Sequence record: NC_070982.1 | Reading direction: 5' to 3' (one strand) | Source of the DNA: Escherichia phage vB_EcoP-101114UKE3 | DNA length: 64,000 bases | In this document: positions 8,977 to 49,370 of the stretch, piece after piece | How positions within the stretch are numbered: the stretch's first letter is position 1 | Layout of the letters: each line of letters opens with the position of its first letter | Notes under the pieces: model-generated | The model's database searches: none | Seen by the model: only the letters and a program-made list of their open reading frames with translations | Told to the model about the DNA's origin: nothing | Program-made: the position numbers and the translations under genes

Positions 8977-8985
8977 TAATGTATA
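8977..8985 (+). promoter_or_regulatory. Candidate phage promoter element TAATGTATA
   Basis: Exact TAATGTATA 34 nt upstream of the ATG at 9019, just after the capsid terminator. Confidence 0.35.
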
Positions 8986-35017: not shown

Positions 35018-35026
35018 TATACATTA
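35018..35026 (-). promoter_or_regulatory. Candidate promoter element TAATGTATA upstream of the SSB gene
   Basis: Minus strand reads GTGTAATGTATATA about 60 nt upstream of the SSB ATG. Confidence 0.3.
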
Positions 35027-41574: not shown

Positions 41575-41583
41575 TATACATTA
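41575..41583 (-). promoter_or_regulatory. Candidate promoter element TAATGTATA upstream of the basic-protein gene
   Basis: Minus strand reads CATAATGTATACTCC about 35 nt upstream of the ATG; overlaps an 8-bp inverted repeat ACTCCTTA / TAAGGAGT that includes the RBS. Confidence 0.35.
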
Positions 41584-42502: not shown

Positions 42503-42823
42503 TCAGATTGATTTGTCCTTATGTAAACGGTATACTTCAGTAGCCATACAAGCTATACGCTCGTCATGTGGGAGATGCATACCAGTAGAGCCGTTCCATC
42601 CTTCGAACTCTGAATCAAAGAATCCAATAGGCTCGGGATACATCTCTTGCAAGGTGGTTAAGTCATCAGCCACTTGTTGCCACTTATCGTCAGACCAGAT
42701 TGGGTCATCCAACCAATAATACAAATAGGAGTGGATAAGCATCTGTGTTCTATGTCGTTTAATCACTTCAGCAGGACTGATTTCATTTCCGTTACCAGTC
42801 CTAAATGTATTATTGTTGATCAT
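42503..42823 (-). CDS. Small protein resembling the N-terminal Ia domain of NAD-dependent DNA ligase (106 aa)
   Basis: YLYYWLDDPIWSDDKWQQVADDLTTLQEMYPE parallels the LigA pattern YLYHV-D-P-I-D-EYD-L...LE-HPEL; no KxDG adenylation motif. Confidence 0.35.
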   Translation of the reverse strand: MINNNTFRTGNGNEISPAEVIKRHRTQMLIHSYLYYWLDDPIWSDDKWQQVADDLTTLQEMYPEPIGFFDSEFEGWNGSTGMHLPHDERIACMATEVYRLHKDKSI

Positions 42824-43299
42824 TCCAAAACCCTTTCTTCTAAATCATAAAAGATTTGATTTGTCCCATTATTCTCAACAAGCACTGTTCCATTATCTAG
42901 CAGGGTAGCAACTTGGGAATAAGGAATGTTCTTTAACATCAGAGCATTAATGGTCGGCTTGTTTTTGAAGTAAGCGACAGGCTCAACATAGAAGGAAATC
43001 CCACGACTTCCTTTAATTGGGGTGCTTGAAGATAGAACCCAAATTGTTTCTGGCTTGTCTATTTCCTTTTCAACACCAACCTCAACAAGAGAGTCAGCAG
43101 CGAAACCTACAGGACGCCTAGAAGAACCAAGCAACCGAACATATCCCGGTAATTTTGACATATTAGACCAACTACCAGTGTTTTCATTAAACACAGGTCT
43201 TACATCACCATATGCCCAAACCAGATTATCATAGTCACGGGCTATGTATTTAACCCAATCAGGAACATCATACTCCCTTCCTTCAAAAATAGCTTTCAT
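42820..43299 (-). CDS. Hypothetical protein (159 aa)
   Basis: RBS AAGGT. Confidence 0.45.
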   Translation of the reverse strand: MKAIFEGREYDVPDWVKYIARDYDNLVWAYGDVRPVFNENTGSWSNMSKLPGYVRLLGSSRRPVGFAADSLVEVGVEKEIDKPETIWVLSSSTPIKGSRGISFYVEPVAYFKNKPTINALMLKNIPYSQVATLLDNGTVLVENNGTNQIFYDLEERVLE

Positions 43300-43494
43300 T
43301 TAGATAACCTTGTGCTTATAGATGTTAGGGTTGTAGTAATGCAACCAGTTTATGTATTGTTTCTGTTCAAGGTAGTGTCTGCAATCATGACAAAAAGCAT
43401 GACCCAAACCTGTTTCCTCGTTCAGCTTGAAGTTGATAAGAAGCTTCTGCTTTTGACAGAAGCTACATGCTTTAGTGGGCTTCACGTAATGCAT
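43300..43494 (-). CDS. Small Cys/His-rich protein, possible zinc ribbon (about 64 aa)
   Basis: C-x2-C ... C-x2-C pattern; start uncertain because the ORF-track frame overlaps the ThyX-like 3' end and the RBS is weak. Confidence 0.25.
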   Translation of the reverse strand: MHYVKPTKACSFCQKQKLLINFKLNEETGLGHAFCHDCRHYLEQKQYINWLHYYNPNIYKHKVI

Positions 43495-44122
43495 CCCATG
43501 AGATTGGGAAAAGTTTACGAAGCTCTTCATCAACAGTTGATGCGAACACTCGTACTTCATACTGAGCATGGTCGGACAGTCGCTGACGACATAACTCTGA
43601 CCAGCCATATAAAGAACCTGTCCACACCCACTCAGTGATCATACCTTGAGGTAGAACGAATCGGGCTTGCTCTGGAGCAATAAACTTAATCAACTCATCA
43701 TATGACTCAAGAGCTGTTTCATATGCCCGATTAATCAGAACTAGTGCAGAGTTTTGCGCTCCCGTGGTGAGGAGATTCCCCGCACCTGCATGGAGGTCCG
43801 AAGGTCTTTCAAAAATCTCTTTAGGGATGAAGAGTTCAACTGCTCCATCTTTATACCGCCGGGACATTTCGTTCCACGAGAATCCAACTTGATGCTTGCC
43901 CAGCTGTCTCGCAATTGCGATTGGCGCTTTGCATCGGAAGCTAATTGTCGGATGGCGGAATGGTGTGACATGCTTTTCTCTGGCAAGGAACTTGATAAGG
44001 CGTTCATCTCGTTCATTTAACTCTCCTTCACGAGTAACCCCAAAGGAAACTCGAGCTGCATTAACAACAGATTTATCAGAACCCATTGCTTCAATTAGTG
44101 TTGCTTGTAATTGTTCGTTCAT
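43472..44122 (-). CDS. thyX: ThyX-like flavin-dependent thymidylate synthase homolog (216 aa), divergent
   Basis: ARVSFG, ARQ...NE-S-RRY and LPQG-x-T blocks fit the ThyX fold, but the RHR signature position reads KHQ. Confidence 0.5.
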   Translation of the reverse strand: MNEQLQATLIEAMGSDKSVVNAARVSFGVTREGELNERDERLIKFLAREKHVTPFRHPTISFRCKAPIAIARQLGKHQVGFSWNEMSRRYKDGAVELFIPKEIFERPSDLHAGAGNLLTTGAQNSALVLINRAYETALESYDELIKFIAPEQARFVLPQGMITEWVWTGSLYGWSELCRQRLSDHAQYEVRVFASTVDEELRKLFPISWDALREAH

Positions 44123-44136
44123 CCTTGAATTCTTCC

Positions 44137-44352
44137 TTAGTAATGAATCTTTTTATAAATCAGGTTGCTTCCACTTTCTGTTTCAATCCCTTTCTGGATT
44201 GTAATCTTAGAAGCACCGGTATTAGCAATTTTTAAAGCTCGTTTAAAGCGGCGAGCCTCTCTCCGTGTTGTGTATGAGGAGAAGCTAGGGATTGTACTAT
44301 CAAAATTAAACCACTTAACTACCCAAAAAGTAATCCAAGGTTTCTTTTCCAT
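44137..44352 (-). CDS. Small hypothetical protein (71 aa), member of a three-gene paralog family
   Basis: Shares W-x-W...TRREAR...KITI-x-K...Y-x-K-x-HY with 46217..46432 and 46432..46629. Confidence 0.45.
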   Translation of the reverse strand: MEKKPWITFWVVKWFNFDSTIPSFSSYTTRREARRFKRALKIANTGASKITIQKGIETESGSNLIYKKIHY

Positions 44353-44353
44353 A

Positions 44354-44629
44354 TTAAATACCTTTCAGAGCTGTATCTAAAAACGCACGGAGGTTTGATT
44401 CAGTTTGCATACCGGACAAGCTGTAGTGAGCACCACTGTTCATGTTAGGAACCACAAAGGCTGGGATACTGCGAACACCATATTCAATGGCTCGCTCTCG
44501 ACCATTACCTTCAGAGATATTTACTTCTTCAACTTCTACGTTGTAATCAGCTACAACTTTCTTAAACACAGGAGCCATAGCTGCACACGGAGCACAGGAA
44601 TTACTATAAAACTTAATTACTTTACTCAT
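44354..44629 (-). CDS. Thioredoxin-like protein with CAPC active site (91 aa)
   Basis: FYSNSCAPCAAMAPVFKKV resembles the thioredoxin WCGPC region; ATG at 44629 with AAGGA RBS. Confidence 0.6.
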   Translation of the reverse strand: MSKVIKFYSNSCAPCAAMAPVFKKVVADYNVEVEEVNISEGNGRERAIEYGVRSIPAFVVPNMNSGAHYSLSGMQTESNLRAFLDTALKGI

Positions 44630-44819
44630 TTTATTCCTTGTTAATAAACAGATTGATATGACGTTGGGTAGCAGGAACAACAATAAAAGATTTATACTGA
44701 CCTTTTGCTAAGTCATGAGCAATCTTCTTTGTCTGACTAAGACCCATTACACAGCCACTAACAATAATAGCATGTGCTTGTAGCTCTTCAGGTAGGTTTA
44801 GTTTCACTCTTTGGGTTCC

Positions 44820-45005
44820 TTATAGCATACAAAGAATAATAACAAGAGGTAGTGTTATAGCAAAATGTACCAGAACAACACTACCTAGCTTGATAGCTTT
44901 AACATCCTCTTCTGCTGGGTTTTCTTTAATTGCTAAATTTCGAGCTTTATATATAACAGTACCAACTATTAACGACCACACGGCCCACACAATCAGTGAA
45001 ATCAT
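44820..45005 (-). CDS. Small two-TM membrane protein (61 aa), tandem paralog of 45015..45194
   Basis: Two hydrophobic helices flanking a KENP-containing loop. Confidence 0.4.
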   Translation of the reverse strand: MISLIVWAVWSLIVGTVIYKARNLAIKENPAEEDVKAIKLGSVVLVHFAITLPLVIILCML

Positions 45006-45014
45006 ATCAAACCC

Positions 45015-45194
45015 TTATGCAGTCAACAGGTGGAGAAGGAAAGGAATGACAACAGAGAAGACTACCAGAGCAATGCTGCCATGTTTAATGGGTTTAGCGT
45101 CATTCGGGTTCTCTTTAAGCATCTGTTTCTGAGCTACATAAACGATACCGCCAACAAAAATTGCCCATACAGACCATACGATTGCTGAAAACAT
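45015..45194 (-). CDS. Small two-TM membrane protein (59 aa), tandem paralog of 44820..45005
   Basis: ATG at 45194 with AAGGA RBS; same helix-LKENP-helix layout. Confidence 0.4.
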   Translation of the reverse strand: MFSAIVWSVWAIFVGGIVYVAQKQMLKENPNDAKPIKHGSIALVVFSVVIPFLLHLLTA

Positions 45195-45257
45195 ACTCAT
45201 ATCCTTATAAAGAAGTTCGCCCCACCTCTTGAACAAAGAGACAGGGCGGAGGTTTGA

Positions 45258-45824
45258 TTAGTAAGACACATCACCACTGGAGTGGGACATGTTGCTCTTG
45301 ACGAAGTAACAGAACTTGCCAAGACCTTCATTAATTTCTTGAAGCATACTCTGGTCCACTGGATAGGTGCACAAGTCTGAATCAAACTCATCCATCTTCT
45401 CAATGATACACATAAGAGTCATGCACATGTCGGAAAGCATACCGTCCATGTCAAGATCAGCGTTACCTTCTCGGAACCAAGCATGACCTAAATAATTACT
45501 AGCAGTAGCATCCACTTTAACACAATGAAAGCGCATACGCTCTGCTATTCGGTCGCCTGCCTCACGAGCATAATCTTCTAGTTCATCGAACATACCATGA
45601 ACACCTTGGAAACCAGCTCCAGAGACGTTCCAGTGGTAGTTCTTTGCTTTGATGTGTAGAAGTTCAAGGTTAGCTTGCACACCACACAAGATGTGTTCTA
45701 AGCTGTTACCGCTAATCAGTTTATTCATTCCCTCAAGACGAGAGATAGAAGAGTCAGTAGCAGAGAATGGGTTGCTAGAACCCACTCGTGTTAGTTCTGG
45801 TAAGTCGAAGACATTATTATGCAT
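45258..45824 (-). CDS. Dps-like ferritin-fold protein (188 aa)
   Basis: KNYHWNVSGAGFQGVHGMFDELEDYAREAGDRIAERM matches the Dps pattern HW-x-V-x-G-x-F...H...F-x-E...D-x-IAER. Confidence 0.65.
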   Translation of the reverse strand: MHNNVFDLPELTRVGSSNPFSATDSSISRLEGMNKLISGNSLEHILCGVQANLELLHIKAKNYHWNVSGAGFQGVHGMFDELEDYAREAGDRIAERMRFHCVKVDATASNYLGHAWFREGNADLDMDGMLSDMCMTLMCIIEKMDEFDSDLCTYPVDQSMLQEINEGLGKFCYFVKSNMSHSSGDVSY

Positions 45825-46146
45825 TAGGTGCATCCCCTTCTAAGTTAGTTGAATTAGCTACATTACGAGCAATGTTATCCATGACCTGCTGTGTAATAAC
45901 AATGCAATTCTGAGGGTCTACTGATTTAGAACGCCCCATCTCAGGGTCATAGACTTTGACTCGCTTGGCTGTTGAGCCAGTAACTTGCAACACTTTGAGA
46001 AGATAGCCTTGGTTTCCAATAGACCATGCAACAACATCACGATTCTTGATATAACGACCAAGCATGTCACGATGATAGAACTGCTGCATAACTTTAGCTT
46101 TGCTAATCTCTTCAGATGGCGGGGCCACTTTACTCAAATCTAACAT
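45817..46146 (-). CDS. Hypothetical protein (109 aa)
   Basis: ATG at 46146 with AGGAGAG RBS; a near-copy of the TAATGTATA element lies about 40 nt upstream. Confidence 0.4.
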   Translation of the reverse strand: MLDLSKVAPPSEEISKAKVMQQFYHRDMLGRYIKNRDVVAWSIGNQGYLLKVLQVTGSTAKRVKVYDPEMGRSKSVDPQNCIVITQQVMDNIARNVANSTNLEGDAPNA

Positions 46147-46216
46147 AACTCTCTCCTGTTTCATACAATATTCTTATACTGTATATACATTTGAGAGTTA
46201 TCATATCTACTACCAA

Positions 46217-46432
46217 CTAGTAATAAACCTTGCTGGATATGAATCCAGCACTGTTATGGATATTTTCAATCCAACGATGAATCTCCACCTTTTCAGCGAT
46301 TCCTAAAGCTTTTGTAGCTTTTATAGTTTTCTTAGCAAGACGAGCCTCTTGTCTTGTGTTGAATAATTGAATACAATCACCACCAAGAGCTTTGTTAGCC
46401 CATTTAGTACGAACTGCCCATAATTTATCCAT
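46217..46432 (-). CDS. Small hypothetical protein (71 aa), paralog family member
   Basis: NTRQEAR and SSKVYY motifs shared with 44137..44352 and 46432..46629. Confidence 0.45.
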   Translation of the reverse strand: MDKLWAVRTKWANKALGGDCIQLFNTRQEARLAKKTIKATKALGIAEKVEIHRWIENIHNSAGFISSKVYY

Positions 46433-46629
46433 TAGTAATGTACCTTTCCGCTGATATAGAAACGACCTGATTTAAAGTCTTGAGCTTTGTGGATAGTGAT
46501 CTTATTAATTGTGCTTTCACAACTTAATAAGAACTTCTTATGAGCGCGAGCTTCTTGACGGGTATTCCTAATACCCATTGACTCTGTACCACTGCTCCAG
46601 TGAATACGAACTACCCAACGTCTTTTCAT
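46432..46629 (-). CDS. Small hypothetical protein (65 aa), paralog family member
   Basis: ATG at 46629 with GTGGAG RBS; NTRQEAR...ITIHK...SGKVHY. Confidence 0.45.
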   Translation of the reverse strand: MKRRWVVRIHWSSGTESMGIRNTRQEARAHKKFLLSCESTINKITIHKAQDFKSGRFYISGKVHY

Positions 46630-46643
46630 TGTTCCAAACTCCA

Positions 46644-46835
46644 CTATCTGTCAACCGATTTAGGGACAAACTGCATTACACAGACCTGACTACGAGGGAG
46701 ATTTATTTCACAAGCGGCTCTTCTCGTCTCAATCTTAACGCTAGAATCTGGACCAACGTTAGATATAAATACTCCCATAGCAAATGCCCCAACTACAAAA
46801 CCTATAGCTAAGTAAGTAGCTTTTTCTTCTTTCAT
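46644..46835 (-). CDS. Small membrane protein (63 aa)
   Basis: N-terminal hydrophobic helix; weak RBS. Confidence 0.35.
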   Translation of the reverse strand: MKEEKATYLAIGFVVGAFAMGVFISNVGPDSSVKIETRRAACEINLPRSQVCVMQFVPKSVDR

Positions 46836-46840
46836 CTTGG

Positions 46841-47374
46841 TTATACACCCTTAGATGCAACTACACCATTACTGCCGTTGTATCGACCCTTCACTGCATA
46901 AGAGTCATCACCAGCGTGAGAGTGTTCGAACATAACCATTTGACCAACACGCATCCCAGCACGAACTCGTAAGCTATGATTATGGGTAACGTTATGAAAT
47001 TCAAAGGTTAGTTTACTGCTGTTAAACCCTGCATCAGCCCAACCAGCATGGAGGTGGTTTAAACCACAACGAGCCATTGAGGAGCGAAGTACAAACAGGC
47101 TTGAGATGTTATCTGGAAGGTTAAACTCTTCCATTGAGTGCGCTAAGAAGAATTGCCCCGGAGTGATAACAATACCATCTTCAGGGATTTTTACTTCTTT
47201 CCACTTGAGGTTTTCTTTAGCATCAATGTCAACAATTCCGTCAGCCTGTTCTTCAACAAGGATAGTATCACCAATACGGATATCCACGCTAGCAGCGTTA
47301 ACATATTTATGCTCCGCATCTAAAAAGCCATTATCAATAACGCTGTGTAATTCTTGAGAACCTAAAAGACTCAT
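46841..47374 (-). CDS. dcd: dCTP deaminase / dUTPase-family enzyme (177 aa)
   Basis: SSMARCGL and GWADAGFNSSKLTFEF blocks typical of the dCTP deaminase family. Confidence 0.7.
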   Translation of the reverse strand: MSLLGSQELHSVIDNGFLDAEHKYVNAASVDIRIGDTILVEEQADGIVDIDAKENLKWKEVKIPEDGIVITPGQFFLAHSMEEFNLPDNISSLFVLRSSMARCGLNHLHAGWADAGFNSSKLTFEFHNVTHNHSLRVRAGMRVGQMVMFEHSHAGDDSYAVKGRYNGSNGVVASKGV

Positions 47375-48819
47375 GAGTTTCTGTTTCCTTGTACAGATGA
47401 TGCCAAATTATTAATCATGTTACGAGCTGTTTCACGAGATAGTGTAACACCTGCTAAGTTGTTATGAAGCTCACCAGATAGCTCACGAGCAGCAGCTCGA
47501 AGTTCTGTACCAAGTGTAGTATCGGAGTGAGCCAAACCATTACGACGACTATAAGGTCGAGGAGCTTCGTTAGCGTCATTAGCCAATGATGCAAAACCAA
47601 TATGAGCAGCTTCACGAGACGCTATAGTTGACACTCGATCTTCCGTAGGGGTTGGCAAATCACCAACTTCTACACGTTCTATATCACCAGCACGTAGACC
47701 CTGAACGACTGAGCTTACTGTTTCCCATGAACGACGAGAACGCTGTAAATCACCCATTGACGGAGAAGAAGCAGGTCGAACAGTTACTCCACCTGTATCA
47801 TGAGTGACATGCCATGTACGAGTATCCATTCCAGAAGAGCGTGCACTACCAAAACTGCCAGTGAAAGTGTCACGAGGTGCCATTGTAGGAGGAACTGCGA
47901 ATCTTTCCTGTTGCCAAGAATCGCGTCTGTTAGTTCCCGGAGTCCAAGGCTGCGTGATTGCTTCAGCACCTATAGTGGTTAATCCGCTAGACCATTCTGT
48001 CTGTAGGTTAACTTCCTCGTCCAGATAACTACGACCCCTTTCCTGAGGAATGTTTAATATAGTTTCCATCATCTTCAGGGTATAATGACGACGCTGATTC
48101 TGATATAAATTTACACCAGCCATAGGTCCAACTAAATCACTAATCAGGTGAACTTCTGGCTCACCGAAAGCTCCCATTGCAAGGTGCATATATTCGGTAG
48201 AACTGCTATAAACTGCAACAGTTGCTTCAGGCCACTTCTTGTGAACATACTTCATTTCACGACCAGATACCACAGGAATGTCACGAGTGTATGACATTGC
48301 AAACAAACCTTCGTTTGACACATACATGTCATCAAGAGACATGAACCCCTGACAGATCATAGGAAAGCGACGGCTTAAAGTATCCATATCCAAAGGTAGA
48401 TTAATCATCATCTGGATTTTAACTTGATCAATCTCAATTTCCAGAATCTCTTGGAAAGTGAAAAGTGCTTCAGCGTAAGTTGTCCCACTAACAGGCTGAA
48501 CTAGGCGAGATGTAGTTTGAAGCCCTTTACTCTCTGTCCAAGACAAGAAGTTGTCAAGGAACAGTGCAGCATTCATCACGTTAGCAGGGTTGTTTTCCTG
48601 ACGGGTGTTCCAACGAAACCCTCCTTGGACTAGGAAGATATCCACATCATTCGGAGTTCGGTTCTGGAAGAACGTATCACGGATAGCACCACCTGCAATA
48701 ACAGGGTAGATACCATCAGGAACTACGTTGTCTCTGATCAGATTGCGAATCAGATCAAGCCCTACGCTGAGGGCTTCTCCTTCTTGAAGGTTTAATTCAG
48801 ACAATGGAATCTTAATCAT
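47371..48819 (-). CDS. Nucleotidyltransferase-fold protein with long S/T/R/G-rich C-terminal region (about 482 aa)
   Basis: GG-x13-DVD pattern (VIAGGAIRDTFFQNRTPNDVDIF) fits Pol-beta-type NTase; ATG at 48819 sits 2 nt after the exonuclease stop. Confidence 0.5.
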   Translation of the reverse strand: MIKIPLSELNLQEGEALSVGLDLIRNLIRDNVVPDGIYPVIAGGAIRDTFFQNRTPNDVDIFLVQGGFRWNTRQENNPANVMNAALFLDNFLSWTESKGLQTTSRLVQPVSGTTYAEALFTFQEILEIEIDQVKIQMMINLPLDMDTLSRRFPMICQGFMSLDDMYVSNEGLFAMSYTRDIPVVSGREMKYVHKKWPEATVAVYSSSTEYMHLAMGAFGEPEVHLISDLVGPMAGVNLYQNQRRHYTLKMMETILNIPQERGRSYLDEEVNLQTEWSSGLTTIGAEAITQPWTPGTNRRDSWQQERFAVPPTMAPRDTFTGSFGSARSSGMDTRTWHVTHDTGGVTVRPASSPSMGDLQRSRRSWETVSSVVQGLRAGDIERVEVGDLPTPTEDRVSTIASREAAHIGFASLANDANEAPRPYSRRNGLAHSDTTLGTELRAAARELSGELHNNLAGVTLSRETARNMINNLASSVQGNRNS

Positions 48820-48821
48820 TT

Positions 48822-49370
48822 CTACATTTTCCAATTTAGAGATGGGGGATTCTTATAATCAAATCCAGCCATTTGGCAAAGACACATGTAAACCTTAACT
48901 GTCAAGTTAACGTCTTGCTCACAATACGTGAACATGTCTTCAGTGAATGCATCCCATGCTTCTTCCTGTTCACCATAATCACCCTTCAGCTCTCCCAGAA
49001 ATTCGCCCCATTGCTTGAGGCCATGACCGCGAGGGCCATGTCTAGGGTCGCCTTTGGGGTATTCTGGACTATCACCAATACGGTCAGGCTTGAGATATCT
49101 ACTCAGGCACAAAGTATCGAAGACGTTAAAGCGAAAAGGTATCACATGAGAATAAAACTTAAACAAAGCAGGAAGGTCAAAATCAATAATATTGTGACCT
49201 ATTACTACATCAGCTTCTTTCAGTTTGTGTAGTGCTTCTTCAATTTGGTGAGGGCGATACCCCCACCGCTCTCCAGATAATACATCAAATATCCAGATAC
49301 ACCAGACATTCTGAATACCATCATAGAGATTATCACCCTCGATATCAAACGCATACAGTTTCTTTACCAC
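48822..49370 (-). CDS. DnaQ-like 3'-5' exonuclease, stand-alone proofreading domain (182 aa); GTG start
   Basis: Exo I FDIE, Exo [13 protein letters not shown], Exo III YCEQD; GTG at 49370 preceded by GGAGG. Confidence 0.65.

Follow-up and report, generated by a model that had tools for sequence, protein, structure and literature searches.

Three short genes on the minus strand of Escherichia phage vB_EcoP-101114UKE3 (NC_070982.1; the window analysed here is one stretch of 64,000 nucleotides of this genome) encode diverged paralogues of a single protein family, which we call A, B and C. Paralogue A (44137..44352; 71 amino acids, MEKKPW...KKIHY) occupies a slot of variable content, flanked by thioredoxin and thyX. 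Paralogues C (46432..46629; 65 amino acids, MKRRW...SGKVHY) and B (46217..46432; 71 amino acids, MDKLW...SSKVYY) are the first and second members of a tandem pair that lies about 1.9 kb from A. All three are real protein-coding genes under purifying selection. They belong to an ordinary phage ORFan family that is already catalogued with no function assigned, and we tentatively read its members as nucleic-acid-binding proteins.

Pairwise BLASTP aligned A with B at 31% identity (E 2e-5), A with C at 37% (E 2e-9) and B with C at 32% (E 6e-10), and the independently built hidden Markov model (HMM) of phrog_4939 matched each protein over profile positions 1-67 of 67, with E values of 5.9e-22 for A, 2.6e-22 for B and 3.5e-26 for C. 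An initial annotation from the letters of the sequence had proposed one family of three proteins of about 70 amino acids at these positions, and the significant pairwise similarities (E 2e-5 to 6e-10) and full-length profile matches bear this out. The number three is exact for this phage: six-frame HMM searches of the 64-kb window and of the remaining 11.7 kb of the genome revealed no fourth copy, and relatives hold one to five. Fifteen columns are invariant in the three-way alignment, and the motifs singled out in the initial annotation are among them. The N-terminal tryptophans and the TR(Q/R)EAR motif are present, and the proteins end in K(V/I)-x-Y; KITI-x-K, proposed as a further signature, is found in A and C, but B reads KVEIHR in its place. 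That the resemblance arose by chance, or that the reading frames are not genes, has a virtually negligible probability. It is ruled out by the BLASTP and phrog_4939 E values, by ratios of nonsynonymous to synonymous substitution (omega) below 1 and by a confident AlphaFold model, and we found nothing in its support.

The source phage is a phiEco32-like podophage of the C3 morphotype. Positions 43000-48000 are 100% identical to Escherichia phage vB_EcoP-101114BS3 (MZ234015.1; Gordonclarkvirinae, Kuravirus), in which A, B and C are each labelled "hypothetical protein", and 92-99% identical to several relatives. Between A and B lie a gp68-like gene, a ferritin/Dps-like gene, two small membrane-protein genes, an open reading frame (ORF) of 58 amino acids and thioredoxin (PF00085, E 3.9e-12), which agrees with the arrangement first described, of two tandem copies and a third some 2 kb off across thioredoxin, Dps-like and membrane-protein genes. 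The start codon of A falls two bases past the thioredoxin stop codon, and the ATG of B and the stop codon of C can be seen to share one base at 46432. C most likely initiates at the ATG at 46629, giving 65 amino acids, and not at the upstream GTG at 46644, because a GGAG stands nine bases upstream of the ATG and this start yields the family N terminus M-K-K-x-W. The surrounding cluster is devoted to DNA replication and nucleotide metabolism and encodes primase/helicase, a polymerase exonuclease subunit, a nucleotidyltransferase, dCTP deaminase (dcd), the Dps-like protein, thioredoxin, ThyX and PhoH. Within it, C and B hold the positions that phi32_70 and phi32_69 hold in phiEco32, with dCTP deaminase on one side and the gp68-like and Dps genes on the other.

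Database searches placed A, B and C in phrog_4939 (PHROGs v4, function unknown), whose members include phi32_69, phi32_70 and phi32_71, three phiEco32 genes at the same locus as the window array. The initial annotation had left the family unrecognised. This holds for its function, which is unassigned, and for Pfam, in which A, B and C had no match, but not for its existence in the PHROG catalogue. A phage collection contained at least one copy in 97 of 97 Kuravirus-like records, deposited as hypothetical proteins. Exhaustive searching of 1.84 billion representatives with a family profile (E <= 1e-3) returned 19 matches, 18 of them 65-78 amino acids long; we rejected the remaining one (P0019) as a spurious eukaryotic tandem-repeat protein. 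In a word-indexed search, a profile of 33 sequences recovered 61 clusters, each of 48-82 amino acids, none of which carried a Pfam domain or a fusion partner. A Salmonella phage of the Grimontviridae holds two family copies, one immediately upstream of thyX. An IMG/VR search returned ECBP2 alone, tblastn with member P0022 found no match among cultured phages, and there were no bacterial or archaeal members in 185,579 species genomes (one genome per species). The family thus appears to be virus-only and limited to one lineage, the phiEco32-like C3 podophages. We found no paper on these genes in the literature searched, and no description of them as a multi-copy family.

All members from the 15 loci that we searched are strongly basic, with isoelectric points (pI) of 9.6-11.0 and net charges of +5 to +13 (A, pI 10.3 and +9; B, pI 9.9 and +7; C, pI 10.8 and +10). 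Among 40 members with mutual identity below 75%, W5, T23, R24, R28 and the C-terminal Y65 were conserved in 100%, K31 in 98% and A27 in 95%. Basic residues were kept at position 48 (K/R, 98%), 32 (K/R, 92%), 2 (K/R, 91%), 8 (K/R, 78%), 3 (K/R, 76%), 43 (K/R, 65%) and 35 (60%, with Lys in 58%), and H47 was found in 68%; the conserved basic positions number 10-11. The ORF lengths and the M-K-K-x-W start are maintained across more than 100 distinct sequences. AlphaFold with 25 sequences produced a confident model for C (predicted local distance difference test (pLDDT) 94; predicted template modelling score 0.77) with a helix at 24-37 and four strands (2-11, 16-21, 41-51 and 57-59). These are predicted to form a compact two-layer sandwich of the order beta1-beta2-alpha-beta3-beta4, and a model from 10 sequences had the same topology at pLDDT 80. 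Helix positions 27, 30, 34 and 37 are hydrophobic and 24, 28, 31, 32 and 35 are basic; from this helical periodicity we infer that the helix buries one face and exposes a basic stripe.

Copy number, assessed by HMM searches of the 15 loci, varied widely. We found one copy in Bas93, which belongs to a clade with a reduced genome of 68.9 kb, two in SU7, three in the source phage, ECBP2, phiEco32 and EP335, four in Bas87, KBNP1711 and the metagenomic contig L004, and five in the metagenomic contigs L005 and L007. Clustering resolved these copies into orthogroups. The C-type (phi32_70-like; ...SGRxYISGKVHY), to which C belongs, is present in 8 of 8 Gordonclarkvirinae genomes and 3 of 3 related metagenomic contigs, and is the sole copy in Bas93. 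The B-type (phi32_69-like), which includes B, is always the next gene downstream of the C-type; the D-type (phi32_71) lies upstream of the C-type and is missing from the source phage; and A belongs to the thyX-adjacent types. The thioredoxin-thyX junction (44123-44353 in the window) is a site of gain and loss and an insertion hot spot, as comparison with the corresponding segments of loci L002 (4116-5034), L013 (5546-6028) and L014 (5783-6274) demonstrated. Nothing occupies this slot in phiEco32 and Bas93. SU7 and EP335 have an HNH endonuclease there, the source phage (A) and KBNP1711 one family member each, and Bas87 two family members plus an HNH endonuclease; in L007, too, it contains a family member. 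Between dcd and the family array, the window also encodes a predicted membrane protein of 63 amino acids (46644-46835, minus strand; phrog_7508). KBNP1711 has this protein as well (62% identity), beside its D-type paralogue, and it is missing from phiEco32, EP335, SU7 and Bas93.

The orthogroups evolve at different rates. Estimates of omega from close orthologue pairs, in which synonymous divergence (dS) was unsaturated, were 0.05-0.11 for the C-type, 0.14-0.34 for the D-type, 0.20-0.31 for the A-types and about 0.5-0.6 for the B-type. Between clades, family proteins share 35-56% amino-acid identity versus 86-100% for the products of the flanking dcd and gp68 genes. Replacement of alleles from distant phages was considered as the cause of this low identity and rejected: the dS of dcd and gp68 between the source phage and other clades is also about 1.0-1.3, and vertical descent is the simpler account (dS of the family genes, about 1-3, is saturated). 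Protein evolution in the family is therefore about eightfold faster within a vertically inherited locus. Exchange was evident in one comparison, in which the B-type proteins of phiEco32 (L003, 6195-6404) and KBNP1711 (L012, 3701-3910) are 97% identical and the adjacent C-type proteins 55%. This pattern indicates a recent recombination between the Kuravirus phiEco32 and the Nieuwekanaalvirus KBNP1711 that ended inside the array.

Our tentative reading, which we hold to be possible rather than probable, is that the family comprises accessory proteins of the replication module that bind nucleic acid or another polyanion. The protein would act as the scaffold of a conserved cationic surface, formed by the Thr-capped helix with its basic stripe (R24, R28, K31, K/R32 and often K35) and by basic positions of the sheet and the N terminus (K/R2, K/R3, K/R8, K43, H47 and K/R48), and W5, A27 and the C-terminal Tyr would keep the fold together. 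The ligand would be a polyanion, most likely DNA or RNA, engaged during the replication phase of infection. Indirect support comes from the pI of 9.6-11 in every member and from the 10-11 conserved basic positions. The location of the genes in the replication and nucleotide-metabolism cluster also speaks for it, as does the retention of at least one copy in each of the 97 Kuravirus-like records and in the reduced genome of Bas93. The paralogues could then be accessory versions with diverged target preference, of which the C-type core is kept everywhere and the others are freely gained and lost.

Several observations weigh against this reading. The family matched no known DNA- or RNA-binding family by sequence or fold, and its model gave no above-background match to nucleic-acid-binding folds (HU/IHF, Alba, dsRBD, KH, RRM, OB, Sso7d and the like). 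The conserved positive charge would suit the binding of an acidic protein equally well, and the seven residues that are invariant or nearly so might all serve the structure alone; R28 or K31, for example, could pair with the terminal carboxylate. Nonsynonymous divergence (dN) is about 0.45-0.5 in the family versus about 0.06 in the flanking genes, roughly eightfold, and the number of copies varies from 1 to 5; both features are more typical of genes that interact with the host than of housekeeping DNA-binding genes. In addition, mass spectrometry of SU10 lysate preparations detected 34 proteins but no member of the family (PMC4281155), an absence that is uninformative because small proteins rich in Lys and Arg are easily missed.

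The rates and copy numbers fit better with a different proposal, that these are fast-evolving modulators, each of which inhibits or redirects a different acidic host or defence protein and retains the conserved core only as a scaffold. We regard this as conceivable but doubtful. Copy-number variation from one to five, the tandem arrays, a gain-and-loss slot common with a homing endonuclease, the low identity and high dN relative to the neighbouring genes, the relaxed omega of the B-type together with its exchange between lineages, and the virus-only distribution of the family all speak for it. Gordonclarkvirinae, moreover, resist restriction-modification systems by a mechanism that is unexplained and with no known inhibitor, as described in the BASEL paper (PMC11990801). 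The uniformly basic charge and the replication-module setting suit modulators less well: the genes are not in the early host-takeover cluster, and basicity in every paralogue points to a common anionic ligand and not to varied proteins. PADLOC and other databases offered no link to defence, and an inhibitor synthesized only once the DNA is inside the cell would not alone account for resistance to restriction. The two ideas could also meet in a set of effectors that is specific to the lineage, diversifies rapidly and binds polyanions, each paralogue neutralizing a different host factor or nucleic-acid-targeting host defence. We consider this rather unlikely; if true, it would help to explain the restriction resistance of the Gordonclarkvirinae, for which neither a modification pathway nor an inhibitor is known, and the family would be a new one in anti-defence or host takeover, with a fold that had no previous tie to such a role.

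Comparison with characterized proteins did not point to a function. Pfam returned nothing for A, B and C at E <= 10 and only scattered single matches among 33 members (E >= 0.04); NCBIfam gave noise (E >= 0.02), PADLOC had no match, and two profiles searched against PDB sequences found chance Sec3 matches only (E >= 0.16). Foldseek against BFVD was significant only for uncharacterized proteins of phiEco32-like phages. The PsaD core, the nucleotide-cyclase and reverse-transcriptase palm, PII/SbtB and ERH were recovered at 4-20% identity with no common motifs; scores against such generic two-layer sandwiches are typical of unrelated small sandwiches and do not justify a functional inference. Ferredoxin-like folds run beta-alpha-beta-beta-alpha-beta, whereas the family runs beta-beta-alpha-beta-beta. 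The T4 antitoxin Dmd (5hy3_B) and AcrIIC3 (6je4_I) have a similar sandwich but ranked only 32nd and 47th among the generic fold matches. The family differs from them in being uniformly very basic, and it showed neither sequence homology nor a specific fold match to Dmd, AcrIIC3 or other characterized inhibitors. Homology to the sigma-70 inhibitor gp79 was rejected, as phi32_79 lies within locus L003 and was nevertheless missed by the family HMM.

Two further likenesses were considered, neither backed by any test. HicB-like and DUF2188 domains combine a beta-hairpin bearing Trp or another aromatic residue, T-x-x-EA at the start of a helix and further beta-strands; we rejected membership in this group, as there was no sequence-profile match and no preferential match to solved structures of the HicB/UPF0150 type. 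The arginine-rich motif of phage lambda N (...QTRRRERRAEKQ...) resembles the Thr-capped, Arg/Lys-rich helix of the family, which reads TRREARRFKR in A. The family helix differs from this motif in that the model places it inside a folded domain, where it would be amphipathic with one face buried.

A third proposed role is as accessory subunits or regulators of the class-II CCA-adding-like nucleotidyltransferase, of dCTP deaminase or of ThyX, for instance as an adaptor for tRNA or DNA substrates. In its favour, the nucleotidyltransferase and dcd genes invariably come just before the tandem array, the dispersed copy stands immediately ahead of thyX (in the Grimontviridae Salmonella phage as well), and the four sequence groups of the hypervariable nucleotidyltransferase coincide with the four groups of C-type sequences. 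The phylogeny of dcd and gp68 shows the same grouping, however, so that no functional link is needed, and we discarded the shared groups as a sign of one. These phages also pass on their gene order as a block. In addition, phiEco32, SU7, EP335 and Bas93 retain thyX but have no thyX-adjacent copy, and 0 of the 61 clusters contained a fusion to an enzyme domain. We judge such a partnership to be very unlikely.

Tandem arrays of small basic phage proteins are also familiar from the ip loci of T-even phages, which are polymorphic and partly tandem, as the family genes are. The family differs from these in lying in another genomic module, probably with other timing, and in having no sequence similarity to them. 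By analogy with the internal proteins of T4, its members might be packaged in the virion and injected with the DNA, for example to protect it, and the unexplained restriction-modification resistance of the subfamily (PMC11990801) would fit such a role. This is highly improbable: the genes sit amid those for replication, on the other strand from the late structural genes, the family is missing from the mass-spectrometry list of SU10 particle preparations (PMC4281155), and there is no evident cleavable targeting peptide because the conserved N terminus forms predicted strand beta1.

Transcription of the three genes may be divided between two units. A candidate promoter for the gp36 sigma factor (AAATGTATATA; 46182..46192, minus strand) lies between B and the gp68-like gene, 36 nucleotides upstream of the gp68-like start at 46146, and agrees at 10 of 11 positions with the phiEco32 gp36-sigma motif tAATGTATAtA, which in SU10 is found upstream of coding sequence 68 (CDS68; PMC4281155). 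The SU7 annotation has a promoter at the equivalent spot. Exact occurrences of TAATGTATA elsewhere in the window are at 35018-35026 and 41575-41583 on the minus strand and at 8977, 25897 and 35089 on the plus strand. With the candidate promoter at 46182..46192, C and B may end an upstream transcription unit and A may belong to the unit that starts there. A terminator after B was sought and rejected; the sole candidate falls inside coding sequence and has a poor T-run. The replication cluster of phiEco32-like phages is assigned to the middle temporal class in papers on YF01 and 7-11 (PMC9965538, PMC8948821), which are secondary sources for phiEco32. The SU10 paper disagrees, taking CDS69 onward as early and placing the boundary between early and middle genes at the promoter upstream of CDS68 (PMC4281155).

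The neighbouring genes provided further observations. Two genes on the minus strand (44820-45005 and 45015-45194) are a second tandem pair of paralogues, situated between A and B, of about 60 amino acids with two hydrophobic segments each; they share 45% identity (E 3e-17), and each matches phrog_9296, a group with no function assigned. The gp68-like protein (45817-46146, minus strand; 109 amino acids, phrog_10984, unknown function) is among the most conserved of the locus (89-100% identity, omega about 0.05) and was detected in SU10 proteomics (PMC4281155). The ferritin/Dps-like gene (45258-45833, minus strand; PF00210, E 7e-8) is called "integrase" in MZ234015.1 and several related records, which looks like an annotation error copied between records. 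For a stand-alone protein of 106 amino acids (42503-42823, minus strand), the match to NAD-dependent DNA ligase is confined to the N-terminal Ia domain (PF22745, E 8e-34); the catalytic domains are missing, yet some records call it "DNA ligase". The nucleotidyltransferase (47371-48834, minus strand; 487 amino acids, phrog_12715) has a GGAIRD...DVD motif like that of class-II CCA-adding and poly(A) polymerase heads, and had no Pfam match at E <= 0.01; its SU10 homologue is annotated as being of the CCA-adding/poly(A) polymerase type (PMC4281155). It is hypervariable between clades (32-42% identity, against 86-100% for the adjacent dcd and 74-100% for the polymerase exonuclease subunit), and its C-terminal 150 or so residues have a low-complexity appearance. 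ARAGORN found no tRNA or tmRNA genes in the window. The sign of the GC skew flips near 30 kb, in keeping with late genes on the plus strand giving way to middle and early genes on the minus strand.

Gordonclarkvirinae are common among coliphages considered as therapeutic candidates, and most of their middle and early genes have been little explored. The analysis ties three Kuravirus proteins annotated as hypothetical to each other, to phi32_69-71 and to one PHROG, and it supplies the family with a fold model of high confidence, a set of invariant residues and a map of copy number from one to five. The importance of the family would grow if the ligand of its conserved cationic surface were shown.

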